Virus genome (UHGV): UHGV-0278189
DNA from: a virus
Strand: one strand, 5' to 3'
Length of the DNA stretch: 41,032 nt
The position numbers were made by a program, and so were the translations under genes. Below the pieces are notes generated by a model. It did not search any database and was not told where the DNA came from. It worked only from the letters and a program-made list of their open reading frames with translations. Each line of letters starts with the position of its first letter. Within the stretch, counting starts at the first letter, position 1. Shown here in pieces: positions 3,462 to 34,971 of the stretch.

Positions 3462-3490
3462 ACCCGCAAAATATTGCGGGCTTTTTTTTA
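3462..3490. terminator. Hairpin at 3' end of tailspike gene (weak terminator)
   Basis: cccgcaaaatattgcggg with A/T runs on both sides; overlaps tailspike stop codon; T-run is on the + strand side so function on the - strand is uncertain. Confidence 0.4.
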
Positions 3491-6400
3491 ACGTTCTTCC
3501 AGAGACTGAATCCGCTCTTTTATCTTATCCATTTCTCTGCGCTGCCATGCTGCCTCGATATAGAATAAGAGATCAGGTCTGACCCCCCATCTAGATCCTG
3601 CTGGCGTTATTTCAACGCGCTCAATGATGTCTTCCATTACCATCACTGGATTATCATCCTCATCAACAATGATGCTCCCGTCATTATCAGTCAGCGGCAT
3701 TTCCCTTTGGCCAGTAATGACGTCATCATATACTGCGGGATAATCGTCATAGCAAAGAAAGGCATAGCGGCATGTTGTGCTTTCTTCTTCCATGAGTCCG
3801 TGAGAAATAAGAACATCACGAAGTTGCTGCGCGATTACACCATGATGTATCCTCGCCCCTTCTTCCCCCTTTATAGCGACAGCGTTCAGCCATTTATAAG
3901 CGATATACCTGACGTCACCCCAGGCATCCAGCAATGCTTCGTCAGGAGAGACCGGCTCTGTCTTTAATGTTCCGTCACTGGTAACCACAGGATTGGAGCC
4001 AAGATAAACTGTCGAGAACCTGTTTCCCGGACCACCAAGAGCATTTACATTATCAAGATAAGGTTTAACATCTCCGTTCTCAAAAAGATGTTCGAGTGCG
4101 TTATATACCGCGCGACGTGGAGTACTGCTTCCGGAACCATGCAACGTTATCATTGCACCATCTGCTGAAGACGTTGTTTCACCGCCGCTAACGATTAATC
4201 TCTGAGCGGTAACATCATCAGACGGTACTTTCTTCGCAATAATGGCGTAATTACCCTCAAGTTTGACTTCCGCGCGAACTTGTCCTGATGTACCTGCATG
4301 GACAGTCAGTGACTGGACGGCAACATCATCTGTGAAATCAACGGGTACAGGAACCGTCCTCACGCCTGACGTCGACATAAAAGTAGGAAGCGTTCTGTTA
4401 GGAGTGGCTCCGTAGACAAAATCCCTTGAAACAAATTCTTCCTGTTTAATTTTCACCCTGAAACAATACAAATCAGCCGGGTGACCATCGTGAACATAAG
4501 GATATTTTCTGTTGTTATCCCCTATGCTCCATGGGTTTAGAAAGTCTTCCCCACCGAAAATGTAGTACAGCCAGTTGTCTTTGATACAAACTGAACCAAC
4601 ACCAACCGCAGAGTTAACTATTCCGCCCTGATAAATCTGATCAGTAACATTAACCCACTCTACATTATCCAGACTCCACTCATTGACGTTAACTCTGGTC
4701 ATAAATGTTCTTGGATAATTTCCTGCATAACGGTTATCAGGTTCTCCTCCTTCCCACTCACCAAATGCGCGCTCACTGCCAAAAATAATCAGCTCATCGC
4801 CAACTTTGGCAAAAGGAAGGTTTGAGTGATGAACATTATTTGGGAAGCGAAGAGAATTCCATGATGTACCTAAATCAGAGCTTCTGTGCAATGAACTACC
4901 GGGTTGAGTACTTAATGTCCCCCTGGTCGTCAGATACAGAATGCCATCATAATATTTTACACATGGCTCAGATGCATTCGCCTCATATTCTACAGGTATG
5001 CGTCTGCGAACAAAGCTACCAGGAGAACCGAAAGCATCAGAGAAATAGAGTATCCCAAGCTCGCGTGGACCAATATCACCATTATGGTAGCCAACAGCAA
5101 AACTGTTATCGCTAATCGTCGCAAAACTGTGAATCTCAGTAACAGGAGTGCTTCCGTCAACAAAAGAAGGAATAGTTCCAAGACTGGTTTTTCTCCATGG
5201 TGACGAGTGAAATGATGTGCCAAAACTCCAGTATCTACCCTCGTTATTCTGATCCACATCCTGGGTATTTTTCGTCGTAACTGTAAAGGTATTTTTATCA
5301 ATAACAGTAGTCACCGTCATATTCCCGGTAACACCTGTAACACCAGAGTTTGAGAAGTTGACAAAATCACCAGCAAATAATCCGTGATCAGTAATGCGAA
5401 TATAAGCGACTTGCTGATTTGCTGCTTTCGTTATACCACCATAAACGCGAAGGCTGCGACTCATTGGGCGATCCCACAACTCTGCAACCTGCAGTTTATT
5501 TCCGCTCACGGTCCGCGTCTCAATTACAGCAAAAAGGCGATTTCTGACAACCCCCATACTCATGCAGTGATAGTTAACTGTGGGATAGTTTTCATGTAAA
5601 TCTGTAAGCCATTCCGGCGTTGTCCAGGTCTTCCCGTCATCTCCTGAGCGAACCCATGCAACATGGAGGTTATTTACACCATGGCGGTCTCCAGCCATAA
5701 AAGGCGCATAGATGACATTGTCATATACAAACGTTTTATCCTGCGTCCAGGCGTTGTACCACGGTGTATCTGTAATTTTAAATAACTCTCCCTGGATAAA
5801 ATCTTCAGAAGCATAAAAAAGAGGTTGGCCCGGTATTCTCTCAAATAAAAAACGAGCATTTTTAAATCGACTGACATCCGGAAGAGTTGATACTTTAAAA
5901 GTAAGCCCTAATCCGTCAATTTTATAACCTGGAGATGAGGCTTCAAGGCACGCGCTTATTGCAGTGGAATCGTCATTTATACCATCACCAACAGCTCCAA
6001 AATCTTTGGGGCTAATAGCATCACGCATTTTATCCTGGAACGTTCGGTACACAGCCCCAGAACCATACTGAATAAACCAACCAAAACCACCAACAACCCC
6101 GGAGATTGCAGCATCGACATAATTACGCATTGAGCGATTATTTACAGCGTCCTGCTCAAATGATGGATCTGCAAGGTTAGAAATTTTGTTTTGCTTTGCA
6201 TCGTAATATTTTGCAAGCAAAGATGGTTTCATCAATGCACGTCTGAACCACCCAAAACATTGCTGGATCAGCATCGTCAGATAGTCAAAGGCATCTTCAT
6301 GCACCTCGGGGAAAAATTTTCCCTGATTACGAAGATCAGTCTCCTGCACCACATCAAGCACACGATCTATCGTAATTCGCCATCCAGCAGCAAGCGGCGA

Positions 6401-6607
6401 CGGAAGAACAACAGAACCGCCACTATAAGTGCCCGCCCCAGTTACCGTATAACCGGTATCCAGTACTAGTTCTGTTACGTTACCGTTAAGGTCAGACACC
6501 TGAACAACCAGGTCGGATTTTTTGAAAATACGGAAGGTATACGGAAATGATGTCGTAACGCCGTTACCAGTGTATTCGTTGTGGTCAACTTCGGTTGAGA
6601 CCGTCAT
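3488..6607 (-). CDS. Tailspike with Asp-box (BNR) beta-propeller-like region and C-terminal intramolecular chaperone-like domain; possible endosialidase
   Basis: 1039 aa; N-terminus MTVSTEVDHNEYTGNGVTTSFPYTFRIFKKSDLVVQV looks like a conserved particle-binding domain; two Asp-boxes (SGDDGKTW, SSDLGTSW); last ~160 aa resemble the self-cleaving chaperone domain of endosialidases and some tail fibers, with a Ser-x4-Lys pattern (TSDGTLK); GGAG RBS. Confidence 0.7.
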   Translation of the reverse strand: MTVSTEVDHNEYTGNGVTTSFPYTFRIFKKSDLVVQVSDLNGNVTELVLDTGYTVTGAGTYSGGSVVLPSPLAAGWRITIDRVLDVVQETDLRNQGKFFPEVHEDAFDYLTMLIQQCFGWFRRALMKPSLLAKYYDAKQNKISNLADPSFEQDAVNNRSMRNYVDAAISGVVGGFGWFIQYGSGAVYRTFQDKMRDAISPKDFGAVGDGINDDSTAISACLEASSPGYKIDGLGLTFKVSTLPDVSRFKNARFLFERIPGQPLFYASEDFIQGELFKITDTPWYNAWTQDKTFVYDNVIYAPFMAGDRHGVNNLHVAWVRSGDDGKTWTTPEWLTDLHENYPTVNYHCMSMGVVRNRLFAVIETRTVSGNKLQVAELWDRPMSRSLRVYGGITKAANQQVAYIRITDHGLFAGDFVNFSNSGVTGVTGNMTVTTVIDKNTFTVTTKNTQDVDQNNEGRYWSFGTSFHSSPWRKTSLGTIPSFVDGSTPVTEIHSFATISDNSFAVGYHNGDIGPRELGILYFSDAFGSPGSFVRRRIPVEYEANASEPCVKYYDGILYLTTRGTLSTQPGSSLHRSSDLGTSWNSLRFPNNVHHSNLPFAKVGDELIIFGSERAFGEWEGGEPDNRYAGNYPRTFMTRVNVNEWSLDNVEWVNVTDQIYQGGIVNSAVGVGSVCIKDNWLYYIFGGEDFLNPWSIGDNNRKYPYVHDGHPADLYCFRVKIKQEEFVSRDFVYGATPNRTLPTFMSTSGVRTVPVPVDFTDDVAVQSLTVHAGTSGQVRAEVKLEGNYAIIAKKVPSDDVTAQRLIVSGGETTSSADGAMITLHGSGSSTPRRAVYNALEHLFENGDVKPYLDNVNALGGPGNRFSTVYLGSNPVVTSDGTLKTEPVSPDEALLDAWGDVRYIAYKWLNAVAIKGEEGARIHHGVIAQQLRDVLISHGLMEEESTTCRYAFLCYDDYPAVYDDVITGQREMPLTDNDGSIIVDEDDNPVMVMEDIIERVEITPAGSRWGVRPDLLFYIEAAWQRREMDKIKERIQSLEER

Positions 6608-6710
6608 GTTAAATCTCCAGATAGTCGCAGCACCCGTTGCGCCGCATATCTGGTTATTCTATTACCTGAAAAACCACATATGGATAGAAAGACTGTGAAT
6701 ACGAATAGAT

Positions 6711-6727
6711 ATTACCTTTCGGGTAAT
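6711..6727. promoter_or_regulatory. Operator-like palindrome TTACC-N5-GGTAA (copy 1)
   Basis: aTTACCtttcgGGTAAt between divergent tailspike and 6803 gene. Confidence 0.6.
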
Positions 6728-6802
6728 TTGCAAAACGTGCTGGATAGCAAACAAATTATTTGATACTGTATAAATATACAGTTATTGCATGGAGAAGATA
6801 AG

Positions 6803-7060
6803 ATGCAGCAGTATCACTATCCACTGGAAGACGGATTTACCGAAAGGATTCACACGCCGGGAGGCGTCAGATCACTGGTGGAGGGATCGCACTTGATGAA
6901 ATTACTCCGGGATCTCGATAAGGATGGATTTAATGTCGATGGCCCACTTGCCGAACTGACTGCACTGATTAACTACGTCACCAGCTCACAGATGTCTATG
7001 CAGGATCTGCAAACACATCTCGACTATTGTGCCGAACAATTACGAAAACAAACCACATAA
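6803..7060 (+). CDS. Small protein paralogous to the C-terminal domain of the antirepressor
   Basis: 85 aa from ATG 6803 (GGAGAA RBS at 6791-6796; ORF track starts at TTG 6785); aligns by eye with the C-terminus of the 8206-8898 product (shared LM.LL, DG, AELT, QTH..Y). Confidence 0.55.
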   Translation: MQQYHYPLEDGFTERIHTPGGVRSLVEGSHLMKLLRDLDKDGFNVDGPLAELTALINYVTSSQMSMQDLQTHLDYCAEQLRKQTT

Positions 7061-7066
7061 AGAAAA

Positions 7067-7082
7067 GGCCGCTCTAGCGGCC
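7067..7082. terminator. Bidirectional terminator between convergent genes
   Basis: GGCCGC-tcta-GCGGCC hairpin with A-rich and T-rich flanks; overlaps stop of 7082-7810 gene. Confidence 0.6.
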
Positions 7083-7810
7083 TATCGTTTCGCTTTGTGC
7101 TCGTCCCAGCACGTTTTGCACCATGCCATTAAGCCGTCCGCATTTTGATTATTAGGGTAAAAGCTAGTTCGTTTTCTGCGGACATTACAAATTGGGCACC
7201 ACTTCATATGGCGTGTATTCTTTGGGCCATCGAGACACCTTGCACACCACTTAGTCAATCCATCTGGATTTTTTGACGATTTCCTGAATTTTTCATATGG
7301 AAGGTTTATTCTGCATCGCAAGCACTGCTTGCTACCACTTGAAACTCTGTTAGCTGATTCTTCTTTTGGCGGCGATACAGAAGGTATTCTTGCTGGCTCT
7401 GATACTGCCTGAGGTGCTTTTTTAGATGACTGAGACGATATGTCATCACCAGGGAATCTTCCATGATATGCCGGACGCGTTGACACTCCGGGTGGAAGCT
7501 CAGCTGTAAACGGCTTTGGCTGAATCAGTTGCCTCTCTTTTGCTAACTCCTGCTGTTTATAATATGTCTGGATTACCGCGCTATCATAAGCAGGAGGTAC
7601 GGAAATATTAGGCGCATTATCTCCCGTTTTTTGAAACTGAGTGGAGGTGTGTTCTATCACCTGTGTACGATTAATCGTTATCTCCCCATCTTCAGTCTTT
7701 ATCGTTTTGTTATGATTAACGACCGTACGATCAGAGATCTTAGTCTTGTTCTGGTTGATAACGTAAATAATCACCGCAACCACACCAACAACTACCCAGA
7801 AAACTTCCAT
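7082..7810 (-). CDS. Single-pass membrane protein with C-terminal tandem CxxC zinc-ribbon motifs (function unknown)
   Basis: 242 aa; N-terminal TM helix (VFWVVVGVVAVIIYVI); C-terminus has four CxxC motifs (CLRC, CARC, CPIC, CKTC) in two ribbon-like pairs; GAGGA RBS; operator-like site 20 bp upstream. Confidence 0.6.
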   Translation of the reverse strand: MEVFWVVVGVVAVIIYVINQNKTKISDRTVVNHNKTIKTEDGEITINRTQVIEHTSTQFQKTGDNAPNISVPPAYDSAVIQTYYKQQELAKERQLIQPKPFTAELPPGVSTRPAYHGRFPGDDISSQSSKKAPQAVSEPARIPSVSPPKEESANRVSSGSKQCLRCRINLPYEKFRKSSKNPDGLTKWCARCLDGPKNTRHMKWCPICNVRRKRTSFYPNNQNADGLMAWCKTCWDEHKAKR

Positions 7811-7829: not shown

Positions 7830-7846
7830 ATTACCTTAAAGGTAAT
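7830..7846. promoter_or_regulatory. Operator-like palindrome TTACC-N5-GGTAA (copy 2)
   Basis: aTTACCttaaaGGTAAt, 20 bp upstream of the 7810 start codon and in the antirepressor leader. Confidence 0.6.
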
Positions 7847-7922: not shown

Positions 7923-7939
7923 ATTACCTTTGCGGTAAA
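7923..7939. promoter_or_regulatory. Operator-like palindrome TTACC-N5-GGTAA (copy 3)
   Basis: aTTACCtttgcGGTAAa in the 395-bp leader upstream of the antirepressor gene. Confidence 0.6.
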
Positions 7940-8205
7940 TTTACATCGCACTCCTCTTGTGCCATAGTAATCGGGCACTGGCAAAATCCAGTGCCGGGAT
8001 TGGTCTCCCGGATTACTACAGAGGCACATATGCCGCATAAGCGGTTTTTTTATGTGTAAAGCGCACCTATTCTATGGTGGGCTGTGTGGGGGCACCGAAA
8101 GGTGCGCCGGGTTCCTTTGTAGCCGGTAAGACCAACTCTGCACAGTTCACCACCATCTGATTGGTCTCAGCGGTGGTGATTAACCTAACTACAAAGGTGA
8201 TCGCC

Positions 8206-8898
8206 ATGAATACCAAACCTTCCATCTTTTCCTTTGAGTCATCCTGCCAGATCCGTATGTTCATGATTGACGGAGAACCTTGGTTTGTCACCAAAGATGT
8301 GTGCAATGCTTTGAATATTGATGTTACACAAGCGAGAAAACTTGATAAAAAAGGCTGGAACAAAAAGGGGCTGTATTCAATACAGACCCCTGGTGGAATA
8401 CAAGAACTATCCATCGTTTCAGAATCAGGTCTCTACATCCTTATTCTGCGTTGCAAAGAGGCAATGACTGAGGGAACGAGAGCATTCAGATTTCTTGAAT
8501 GGGTTACAGGTGAGGTTCTTCCTCAGATCCGCCGCACCGGAAGTTACATTAAAAACTCGCTCCCGCAGGAAGAACGCATAAAGATGGTTGCCGACCAGGT
8601 AGCCAACGCCACAGCATCAGCAGTGATGCAGGCAATGAAGATAGAGAACAAAACCTACAGTGCCCCACTGAAGCCCGGCTACCGCAGCCTGATTCATTCT
8701 CCGTCTGGTGTTCTCGGCCTGACGGAGAACTCATTGCTTATGAATCTGCTAAACCAGTTACAGGAAGACGGGCACGACGTATCGGGCGCGGCGGCGGAGC
8801 TGACCACCATGTTCTGCTACATCGTCGGTGTGAGCAAATGCCTGCGTGATATCCAGACCCACGCGGAGTACATCAACGACAAGGCAGGGTTCTTCTGA
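8206..8898 (+). CDS. Antirepressor (Bro-N-like N-terminus, Ant/KilAC-like C-terminus)
   Basis: 230 aa from ATG 8206 with AAAGGTGA RBS (ORF track starts at TTG 8161); N-terminal segment FMIDGEPWFVTKDVCNAL typical of Bro-N/antirepressor proteins. Confidence 0.7.
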   Translation: MNTKPSIFSFESSCQIRMFMIDGEPWFVTKDVCNALNIDVTQARKLDKKGWNKKGLYSIQTPGGIQELSIVSESGLYILILRCKEAMTEGTRAFRFLEWVTGEVLPQIRRTGSYIKNSLPQEERIKMVADQVANATASAVMQAMKIENKTYSAPLKPGYRSLIHSPSGVLGLTENSLLMNLLNQLQEDGHDVSGAAAELTTMFCYIVGVSKCLRDIQTHAEYINDKAGFF

Positions 8899-8963: not shown

Positions 8964-8980
8964 ATTACCTTACGGGTAAG
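8964..8980. promoter_or_regulatory. Operator-like palindrome TTACC-N5-GGTAA (copy 4)
   Basis: aTTACCttacgGGTAAg between antirepressor and 9039 gene. Confidence 0.6.
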
Positions 8981-9038: not shown

Positions 9039-9671
9039 ATGAAAACAAATACAACAAGAAAAGCGATGCCATACATTATCCCAGAAGCAGATTTCGACAG
9101 AAAACTGAACATGTCTGAGAAGAACACTAGTCACACCGAAAGCTACTTAGCGAAAGGTGTGGTTGATTTCGTTCTTCCGGGATTCACAACACCTTATGGT
9201 TATCGCCTTGTAAAATCTTGTAATGGCGATCATTACAGAATGATTACTACCAGCGATACTCCAGAAACGGTGTATGCGGTTAAGTTAATCTTTCGGGAAG
9301 ATATCGTCGAAGCTAAAAGAACATGTACGCAGATCATGGTATGGCGTACGCCTAATGTTATTCATGACCGTGCTGTTCATGGTTTGCCTCAGATTTTTTT
9401 TCAGTTCTTTCTAGAGCAATATGCGATCGTTGTATCTGATGAGCAACAAACAATCGATGGGAGAAGATTCTGGGAAAGAATGATTTCTTGGGCTATAAAC
9501 ACCCCGGGATATAATGTATACGTTTCAGATGGCTCTGAAGAAGATAGACCTCTTAGCTTCATGACATCATGGGATGATTTCTATAGCCAGTGGGCTGATT
9601 TCTGTTGGGGCAGTGATAAAGATGTGCATACCCACAGACTACTGGTTATAAGCAAAGATAAACTGCATTAA
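9039..9671 (+). CDS. Hypothetical cytoplasmic protein (accessory/moron)
   Basis: 210 aa; GGGAGG RBS; followed by strong terminator; no family recognised. Confidence 0.6.
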   Translation: MKTNTTRKAMPYIIPEADFDRKLNMSEKNTSHTESYLAKGVVDFVLPGFTTPYGYRLVKSCNGDHYRMITTSDTPETVYAVKLIFREDIVEAKRTCTQIMVWRTPNVIHDRAVHGLPQIFFQFFLEQYAIVVSDEQQTIDGRRFWERMISWAINTPGYNVYVSDGSEEDRPLSFMTSWDDFYSQWADFCWGSDKDVHTHRLLVISKDKLH

Positions 9672-22213: not shown

Positions 22214-22264
22214 CTTCTTTCTCCATTAGTGGGTCTGTTACGACCCACAGGTTAATAACAGGCG

Positions 22265-26584: not shown

Positions 26585-26661
26585 GTGGCATTAGCTCAGT
26601 TGGACAGAGCAACCGCCTTCTAAGCGGTTGGTCGCAGGTTCGAATCCTGCATGCCACGCCA
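26585..26661 (+). tRNA. tRNA-Arg (anticodon UCU), phage-encoded
   Basis: 77 nt; acceptor stem GTGGCAT/ATGCCAC, D-arm GCTC..GAGC, anticodon loop CTTCTAA, T-arm GCAGG-TTCGAAT-CCTGC, discriminator G and encoded CCA. Confidence 0.85.
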
Positions 26662-34180: not shown

Positions 34181-34197
34181 TTTACCTGTTGGGTAAT
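34181..34197. promoter_or_regulatory. Operator-like palindrome TTACC-N5-GGTAA (copy 7, OR-like)
   Basis: tTTACCtgttgGGTAAt in cro/repressor intergenic region; additional half-sites GGTAAC (34144) and GTTACC (34164) nearby. Confidence 0.65.
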
Positions 34198-34251: not shown

Positions 34252-34836
34252 ATGAAAAGTATCCAGGACGTCCGCAGGCAAAATCTCAACGACTTGATCG
34301 ACCGTGAATTCAATGGTGTTCAGACGCGGATGGCTGAAAAACTTGGAACTCAGGCAAATCTGGTAAACCGCTGGGCTCTTGGCAAGAAGGTTATCGGCGA
34401 CCAGGTTGCACGAAAAATTGAAGCTGCCGCCAATAAACCCCGTAACTGGCTTGATATCGATCGCTCGCTTTCTCAGGAAGGTTTTCAGCCTGTCGGCCCA
34501 AGCGACATTGGCCAGCTGGCGGCTCACAACCTGGAACGCTGGATGAGCGAAAGCCGCGACCTTTCAACACAGGGAAAACTTCACCGCGCATCCGGCGTAG
34601 CCCAGGTGACAATCAGCCGCCTATTAAACAATGAGGTCAGCGTTTCCATTTCCACCCTGGAGAATGTTGCATCCGCATTCGGGCGTCACGGCTATGAATT
34701 ACTGATTCACCCGCACGACCCTGCGACCATCAACTATGATCGCTCGCGCTACGCATTGTTACCCGAAACCGAGAAAGCAAAGATCGAAAGTTACATTGAA
34801 TTTGTCATCAACCAGAACGAAAAAAACAAACAATAA
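34252..34836 (+). CDS. CI-like repressor with HTH motifs and no LexA-like protease domain
   Basis: 194 aa; two HTH-like segments (TQANLVNRWALGKKVIGDQVARKIE and ASGVAQVTISRLLNNEVSVSISTLENVASAFG); divergent from cro-like gene; followed by strong terminator. Confidence 0.6.
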   Translation: MKSIQDVRRQNLNDLIDREFNGVQTRMAEKLGTQANLVNRWALGKKVIGDQVARKIEAAANKPRNWLDIDRSLSQEGFQPVGPSDIGQLAAHNLERWMSESRDLSTQGKLHRASGVAQVTISRLLNNEVSVSISTLENVASAFGRHGYELLIHPHDPATINYDRSRYALLPETEKAKIESYIEFVINQNEKNKQ

Positions 34837-34892: not shown

Positions 34893-34909
34893 ATTACCTG
34901 ACGGGTAAT
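34893..34909. promoter_or_regulatory. Operator-like palindrome TTACC-N5-GGTAA (copy 8, OL-like)
   Basis: aTTACCtgacgGGTAAt. Confidence 0.65.
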
Positions 34910-34927: not shown

Positions 34928-34956
34928 TTGACATCAAACCATATACGCATAATTAT
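34928..34956 (+). promoter_or_regulatory. Putative pL-like sigma70 promoter
   Basis: TTGACA at 34928-34933; AT-rich -10 candidates ~16-17 bp downstream; overlapped by operator copy 9. Confidence 0.35.
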
Positions 34957-34971
34957 TACCTCAACGGTAAC
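34955..34971. promoter_or_regulatory. Operator-like palindrome TTACC-N5-GGTAA (copy 9, OL-like)
   Basis: aTTACCtcaacGGTAAc plus extra half-site GGTAAC at 34979. Confidence 0.65.

Follow-up and report, generated by a model that had tools for sequence, protein, structure and literature searches.

The window, by which we mean the whole 41,032-nt stretch of viral DNA that was analysed, has TL-2011b, phiV10 (genus Uetakevirus) and vB_EcoP_ZX5 as its nearest phage records, and it matches the prophage found beside guaA in Escherichia coli K1 strains such as IHE3034 and APEC O18. It is an epsilon15-like podovirus prophage belonging to the same genus (Uetakevirus) as SPC32H. On its plus strand, an open reading frame running from the ATG at 6803 to the TAA at 7058–7060 encodes a free-standing protein of 85 aa with no extra domain. 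This gene, which we refer to as ant, is placed between the tailspike and injection-protein genes, as it is in SPC32H. Downstream of it are a convergent gene of variable content, an RNA leader with isrK and C4 elements, and a gene for a larger antirepressor with a Bro-N domain; the repressor gene rep is on the same strand in the distal part of the window (Table 1).

The surroundings of ant vary among relatives. The tailspike (3488–6607, minus strand) is an endosialidase (K1 capsule depolymerase) on an epsilon15-type N-terminal adaptor, which indicates an epsilon15-like temperate phage retargeted to K1-encapsulated E. coli. The 242-aa product of the convergent cargo gene belongs to PHROG 6762, whose function is unknown, and has weak matches to endonuclease VII/HNH-like zinc fingers. 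This slot is empty in phiV10; TL-2011b has a pseudogene-like stretch in it, and IHE3034 has two genes there, one for a toxin of the YafO family and one hypothetical. A phage-borne tRNA is found at 26585–26658, between the portal operon and a small plus-strand ORF, and is a tRNA-Arg in the annotation of the IHE3034 copy.

Table 1. Positions of ant, its control elements, the partner cassette, rep and the operator-like palindromes in the window.
Feature	Position	Strand	Details
Palindrome, putative Rep operator	6712..6726		TTACCTTTCGGGTAA; between the divergent tailspike and ant genes
Putative ant promoter	6760..6788	+	-35 TTGATA (6760-6765), 17-nt spacer, -10 TATTGC (6783-6788); from sequence
LexA (SOS) box	6764..6783		TACTGTATAAATATACAGTT; 18/20 against the consensus TACTGTATATATATACAGTA
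Ribosome-binding site	6791..6797	+	GGAGAAG; GGAG 8 nt before the ant ATG
ant	6803..7060	+	85-aa small antirepressor; SPC32H Ant orthologue; homology to PDB 5D50_E
GC-rich hairpin	7066..7083		terminator-like (minus-strand call); between ant and the convergent cargo gene
Variable cargo gene	7082..7810	-	242 aa, Cys-rich C-terminus; between ant and the isrK cassette
Operator-like palindrome	7831..7845		TTACCTTAAAGGTAA; present in TL-2011b too
Operator-like palindrome	7924..7938		TTACCTTTGCGGTAA; directly upstream of the isrK promoter -35
Putative PisrK	7940..7968	+	TTTACA-17-CATAGT, TG before the -10; ends 7 nt before the isrK match
isrK-type sRNA/leader	7975..8051	+	Rfam RF01394, 74.7 bits (gathering 50), full length
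C4-type antisense RNA	8070..8157	+	Rfam RF01695, 78.6 bits (gathering 45), full length
Large antirepressor gene	8206..8898	+	230 aa; Bro-N (residues 16-106), linker, Ant-like C-terminal module
Ant-like C-terminal module	8644..8895	+	residues 147-230 of the Bro-N protein
Operator-like palindrome	34182..34196		between the divergent cro-like gene and rep
rep	34252..34836	+	194-aa prophage repressor; presumed Ant target
Two operator-like palindromes	34894-34908, 34956-34970		downstream of rep, early-left operon start
All exact palindromes (starts)	6712, 7831, 7924, 8965, 26248, 29417, 31833, 31895, 34182, 34894, 34956		TTACC-N5-GGTAA

To identify the 85-aa protein we compared it with structural, phage and family collections. 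Among all PDB sequences its sole match was chain E of 5D50, an 86-aa 'Anti-repressor protein' (phmmer, E 1.3e-47, residues 2–85 on 3–86). 5D50 is the Rep–Ant complex of SPC32H and 5D4Z is a fragment of Rep. With tblastn, the ant gene of SPC32H (KC911856.1) showed 88.1% identity over the full length of the protein, and the SPC32N gene, annotated 'ant: anti-repressor protein' as in SPC32H, was 88% identical. Identity was 97.6% to phiV10 p24 and 84.5% to epsilon15 gp19, both of which are annotated as hypothetical. No Pfam or NCBIfam model matched the protein; a match to DUF724 was rejected since, at 17.6 bits, it was far under the cut-off. The homologues are 85–86 aa long and the protein is intact in eight genera. 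A word-indexed protein search reached only close free-standing relatives with at least 70% identity, and a profile search was needed to find the fused forms described below.

The gene is both constrained and widespread. Against five orthologues its dN/dS was 0.06–0.08, with dS of at least 1.2, so that synonymous sites are near saturation. These values indicate strong purifying selection and not a remnant. We found ant in 529 of 5,426 complete E. coli genomes, where the RefSeq records listed for it read 'hypothetical protein'.

The region in front of ant contains a LexA box, which is the only site in the window with three or fewer mismatches to the 20-nt SOS consensus; no such site appeared in 100 shuffles. 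Its core, CTGTATAAATATACAG (6766–6781), lies 37 nt upstream of the ant ATG. A CTGT-N8-ACAG core at –37 was observed in 11 related loci. It has this position in the phages phiV10, TL-2011b, SPC32H, epsilon15 and Enterobacter phage Tyrion and also in Citrobacter, Erwinia, Pseudocitrobacter and Scandinavium genomes, and Buttiauxella has it at –41; in all, its place is maintained across eight genera. A core with one mismatch, ATGT-N8-ACAG, was seen in Klebsiella and Superficieibacter. SPC32N differs from its sister SPC32H by a C to A change in one half-site of the box (ACAG to AAAG). This agrees with the abstract by Kim and Ryu, according to which a single LexA-box mutation reportedly renders Ant constitutive. 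Two further CTGT-N8-ACAG sequences in the window, at 22235 and 26783, were rejected as LexA sites because of their GC-rich centres, poor flanks and more than three mismatches to the consensus.

The LexA-box core almost fills the spacer of the putative ant promoter. The –35-like element, in the form TTGNTA, is kept across the aligned ant loci. The putative –10, TATTGC, is weak, and a transcript from it would begin inside the ribosome-binding site or just in front of it, with a leader of only about 8–10 nt. On inspection of the sequence upstream of this TTGATA/LexA-box arrangement we saw no better promoter, and we infer that ant is transcribed from it. The predicted LexA-binding site overlaps this candidate promoter and has the same position as in SPC32H. 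The recA promoter has the same layout, with a LexA box between the –35 and the –10. The GGAG of the ribosome-binding site is kept in every ant locus examined except that of Erwinia dacicola, which has GGAAAT. Transcription of ant may end at the hairpin behind it, where the T tract on the plus strand is weak.

The window also encodes the orthologue of the SPC32H repressor. Rep matched chain A of 5D50, 'Repressor', over residues 1–190 (phmmer, E 4e-42). In Pfam it has two HTH regions and no Peptidase_S24 self-cleavage domain, and no repressor of the CI/LexA type is annotated anywhere in the IHE3034 prophage copy. Rep shares only 42% of its residues with the epsilon15 repressor and has diverged to a similar degree from SPC32H Rep; conservation between the window phage and epsilon15-type phages is seen in its N-terminal region and in the operator half-sites. 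By contrast, Ant is 84–88% identical to the Ant of the Salmonella phages. This difference in conservation could result from mosaic exchange of the immunity region or from a conserved Ant-binding surface on Rep. By extrapolation, the Ant of the window would be compatible with the Rep of the window.

A palindrome, TTACC-N5-GGTAA, is strongly enriched in the window. There are 11 exact copies, and with up to one mismatch allowed 15 sites were observed where 0.73 are expected. The copies are at or near intergenic regions, upstream of several operons and on both sides of rep. In the epsilon15 record the equivalent sites, including those corresponding to the tailspike–ant and early-left copies, are annotated 'protein_bind: repressor'. 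These palindromes are probably Rep operators placed before several operons. The copy between the tailspike and ant genes is at –91 from the ant ATG in the window and at –91 or –89 in most relatives. Of the ten enterobacterial loci with the cassette, nine have the copy in front of isrK at –51 relative to the start of isrK, and phiV10 has it at –48. The palindrome at 8965–8979 precedes a 210-aa ORF of unknown function (9039–9671, PHROG 1349), which looks like a further Rep-controlled accessory gene.

The larger protein encoded 1.1 kb from ant matched the Pfam Bro-N model (E 1.8e-13) and PHROG 130, 'anti-repressor Ant' (E 3.5e-51), and a cluster 100% identical to it bears the name 'BRO-like protein'. 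The isrK and C4 elements in front of its gene are both conserved in ten related enterobacterial loci, and the isrK element contains an intrinsic terminator (8032–8045 plus a T run). An ORF of 28 codons within C4 (8074–8160) ends one codon before an in-frame TTG at 8161 that extends the Bro-N ORF. This small ORF might correspond to orf45 of Gifsy-1 or icd of P1 and act through translational coupling. Indirect evidence for antirepressor activity comes from ZX5, which moved towards the lytic cycle when its Bro-N protein (ORF4) was overexpressed, in a study that tested only the large Bro-N antirepressor (PMC9782041). The Bro-N protein of the window is probably a second antirepressor that is controlled by repressor and RNA.

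We modelled the Bro-N protein as a monomer with AlphaFold2, using an alignment of 24 sequences. The mean pLDDT was 61.5, with residues 117–177 below 50 and the other parts of the Ant-like module at about 50–66. These low values could arise from predicting as a monomer a module that possibly needs oligomerisation. The module is constrained as well, with a dN/dS of 0.21–0.24. In phiV10 (4215–4450) the corresponding module of the Bro-N gene is distributed over two reading frames, annotated p23 and p22, which reflects a frameshift mutation or else an error in sequencing.

An earlier note on this DNA, made from the letters alone, had described the 85-aa product as a free-standing paralogue of the C-terminal domain of the antirepressor, lacking the Bro-N domain. 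Our results bear this out, and the coordinates, the length, the identity of roughly 40% and the 1.1-kb distance that it gave are all correct. BLASTP aligned residues 2–75 of the small protein with residues 149–222 of the large one without gaps (31 of 74 identical, 42%; 56 bits; E 7e-16), a similarity far beyond chance. PHROG 450 matched both proteins (E 1.4e-47 for the small and 3e-37 for the large), and the C-terminus of the Bro-N protein also matched 5D50_E (E 9e-14). In a tblastn search of the whole window the small protein had significant matches only to itself and to 8650–8883, so there is no third copy.

We then compared the two modules across 16 enterobacterial loci. Ten of these have ant, isrK, C4 and a Bro-N gene with an Ant-like module, in that order; SPC32H, epsilon15, C. 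braakii, Pseudocitrobacter and Buttiauxella lack this arrangement. Orthologues of Ant are 59–100% identical to the Ant of the window, and orthologues of the fused module are 54–100% identical to the fused module of the window. Between the two clades identity is just 35–51% (35–46% within one genome), and the duplication is therefore old; 22 alignment columns do not vary between the clades. The earlier note read the small protein as a possible modulator or shuffling remnant; the reverse direction, in which the large antirepressors recruited the Ant module, is likelier.

Ant of SPC32H is said to have been described by Kim and Ryu in 2013 (J Virol) and by Kim et al. in 2016 (PNAS). The window resembles SPC32H in its ant (about 88% full-length identity, equal size, genus and genomic position, LexA box at –37) and in having a homologous Rep without a cleavage domain. 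It differs in that its host is E. coli K1 and not Salmonella, that its Rep shows only 42% identity to that of the Salmonella type (epsilon15), and that it adds the isrK/C4/Bro-N cassette with a second Ant-like module, which SPC32H lacks. Passages of PMC9638917 describe SPC32H Ant as a tetramer and, together with passages of PMC9986798, state that this tetramer binds a pair of Rep dimers and takes apart the Rep tetramer that binds DNA. Ant contacts the C-terminal tetramerisation domain of Rep, as given in a passage of PMC9986798, and is made after LexA cleavage according to a statement in PMC7380047, citing Kim and Ryu 2013.

Other antirepressors resemble parts of this locus. The Gifsy proteins GfoA, GfhA and GftA and Tum of phage 186 are, like Ant, small, LexA-controlled and encoded far from the immunity region, and they inactivate non-cleavable repressors by protein contact (PMC3121763). 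However, no Pfam, PHROG or PDB match of the window Ant links it to them. Unlike ant of the window, the Gifsy genes are part of a dinI–antirepressor–irsA operon, and Tum carries a fused DinI-like half. We therefore treat these proteins as functional analogues of Ant and not as family members. RNA-controlled antirepressor cassettes are known from immI of P1 and P7 (c4 RNA, icd, ant) and from isrK–orf45–anrP of Gifsy-1 (PMC4825925; PMC12197685). The Bro-N gene of the window matches such cassettes, with full-length isrK and C4 elements upstream and an operator-like site at its promoter; this likeness concerns the partner gene and not the ORF at 6803–7060. In P22, Ant is encoded in immI (mnt, arc, ant, sar RNA) beside the tailspike gene of a podovirus, as is ant in the window. 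By contrast with P22, the window has no P22_AR_N protein, mnt/arc or sar, and its small Ant would be under LexA and not Mnt/Arc. TL-2011b is P22-like in having a P22_AR_N protein beside a sar RNA match, and this protein has an Ant-like C-terminal module.

Together, these data make it very likely that the gene at 6803–7060 is ant, the SOS-sensing small antirepressor that operates the lytic switch of epsilon15-like (Uetakevirus) prophages. In a lysogen, host LexA bound to the SOS box between the –35 and the –10 would keep ant off. Upon DNA damage, activated RecA would promote self-cleavage of LexA and ant would be transcribed. Ant would then bind the non-cleavable Rep and dismantle the Rep tetramer, releasing the Rep-controlled promoters, which we take to be those marked by the TTACC-N5-GGTAA palindromes. 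One promoter released in this way would drive the isrK/C4/Bro-N cassette. The Bro-N product is expected to be a second antirepressor, which may lock in the lytic decision or act on the repressors of other prophages in the manner of the trans-acting antirepressors of Salmonella (PMC3121763).

The same observations could be read differently. The earlier note had suggested that the small protein modulates the large antirepressor. As an accessory of the Bro-N protein, and not itself an antirepressor, it might act for example through mixed oligomers formed via the shared module. The modules are homologous, the two genes are neighbours in the ten loci noted above, and the description of Ant as a tetramer in passages of PMC9638917 makes mixed oligomers conceivable. 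However, SPC32H and epsilon15 carry ant without a Bro-N paralogue, which means that ant must function independently of the large protein, and the crystal structure of the SPC32H protein is that of a complex with Rep. In addition, ant has its own promoter, predicted to be LexA-controlled, the control region of the Bro-N gene differs, and the identity between the modules within one genome is low. These points make a purely accessory role improbable; cross-talk of Ant with the Bro-N protein on top of its role as an antirepressor is conceivable. The note also raised the idea of a remnant of domain shuffling. Shuffling of the module is real, as set out below, but the low dN/dS argues against a remnant. 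That the ORF is a decaying leftover or a chance ORF with no function might be suggested by its shortness, the lack of a Pfam or NCBIfam model and the annotation 'hypothetical protein'. The constraint at near-saturated synonymous sites, the intact protein of about 86 aa in eight genera, the conserved ribosome-binding site and LexA box, the solved structure of an orthologue and the many E. coli genomes with the gene leave this reading with practically no probability.

It has to be considered, too, that Ant might mainly hit the repressors of co-resident epsilon15-like prophages, with the phage's own Rep being handled by the diverged module of the Bro-N protein. Such cross-induction would fit the fact that Ant is 84–88% conserved in phages that share only about 42% identity in Rep, and the trans-acting antirepressors of Gifsy and Fels prophages hit non-cognate repressors (PMC3121763). 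On the other hand, an operator-like palindrome is present at the promoter of the Bro-N cassette. Should this palindrome be a Rep operator, the cassette would be silent as long as Rep is active, so that it could not be the primary trigger. Furthermore, the LexA box ties the SOS signal to ant only, and these phages have in common a conserved N-terminal Rep region and conserved operator half-sites. We consider a main role in cross-induction very improbable, even more so than the accessory role. We favour the idea that Ant acts on the Rep of its own phage in response to SOS induction.

The small gene is the already-known LexA-controlled antirepressor Ant; it is ordinary for this phage group and known nearly in sequence. 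The less-described part of the locus is the Bro-N partner, and the shuffling of the module is a modest side finding. There is nevertheless an annotation gap, since ant with its LexA-box promoter is common in E. coli and is unnamed in Pfam, NCBIfam, PHROGs and RefSeq despite a crystal structure. Because ant is unnamed in the annotation of E. coli, predictions of prophage induction for these strains would miss the actual SOS sensor. The paralogy also points to the likely repressor-contacting part of the many uncharacterised 'BRO-like' antirepressors. In addition, one repressor-binding module is naturally present in these phages in two copies under different regulation, and in TL-2011b in three.

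To see where else the Ant module occurs we searched 1.84 billion cluster representatives with a profile. The family is small, with 62 clusters at E ≤1e-3, and consists of free-standing proteins of about 80–95 aa and of longer proteins. In every longer protein whose domains were checked the module was C-terminal, and its N-terminal partners were AntA, Bro-N, Phage_pRha and ORF6N, with P22_AR_N in TL-2011b. The last 78–80 residues of the fused module of the window occur unchanged on an AntA protein (P0121) and on the P22_AR_N protein of TL-2011b, and these fused sequences diverge at the point where the free-standing Ant begins. Rha and ORF6N domains carry diverged copies of the module. Direct comparison showed that the Bro-N protein of Enterobacter phage Tyrion carries an Ant-like module too.

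The module is thus found in three settings: alone with a LexA box, fused to Bro-N with isrK, C4 and an operator-like site, and, in TL-2011b, fused to P22_AR_N with sar. We tentatively propose, at somewhat short of even confidence, that the Ant fold of about 80 residues is a portable repressor-recognition cassette that has come under up to three control schemes in one phage lineage. If this is true, the C-terminal halves of the large Bro-N, AntA, Rha, ORF6N and P22_AR_N antirepressors would recognise the repressor, their N-terminal domains would be interchangeable, and the crystallised Ant–Rep complex would be a direct structural template for these C-terminal halves.

The third module of TL-2011b is the C-terminus of a 314-aa P22_AR_N protein (6480–7424, minus strand), the last 78 residues of which are identical to the C-terminus of the Bro-N protein of the window. 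Beside this gene, at 7426–7493, Rfam gave a sar RNA match that is just over the threshold (44.8 bits against a gathering score of 43). A single phage, TL-2011b, therefore carries LexA-, C4- and sar-type antirepressor cassettes that all share one module.
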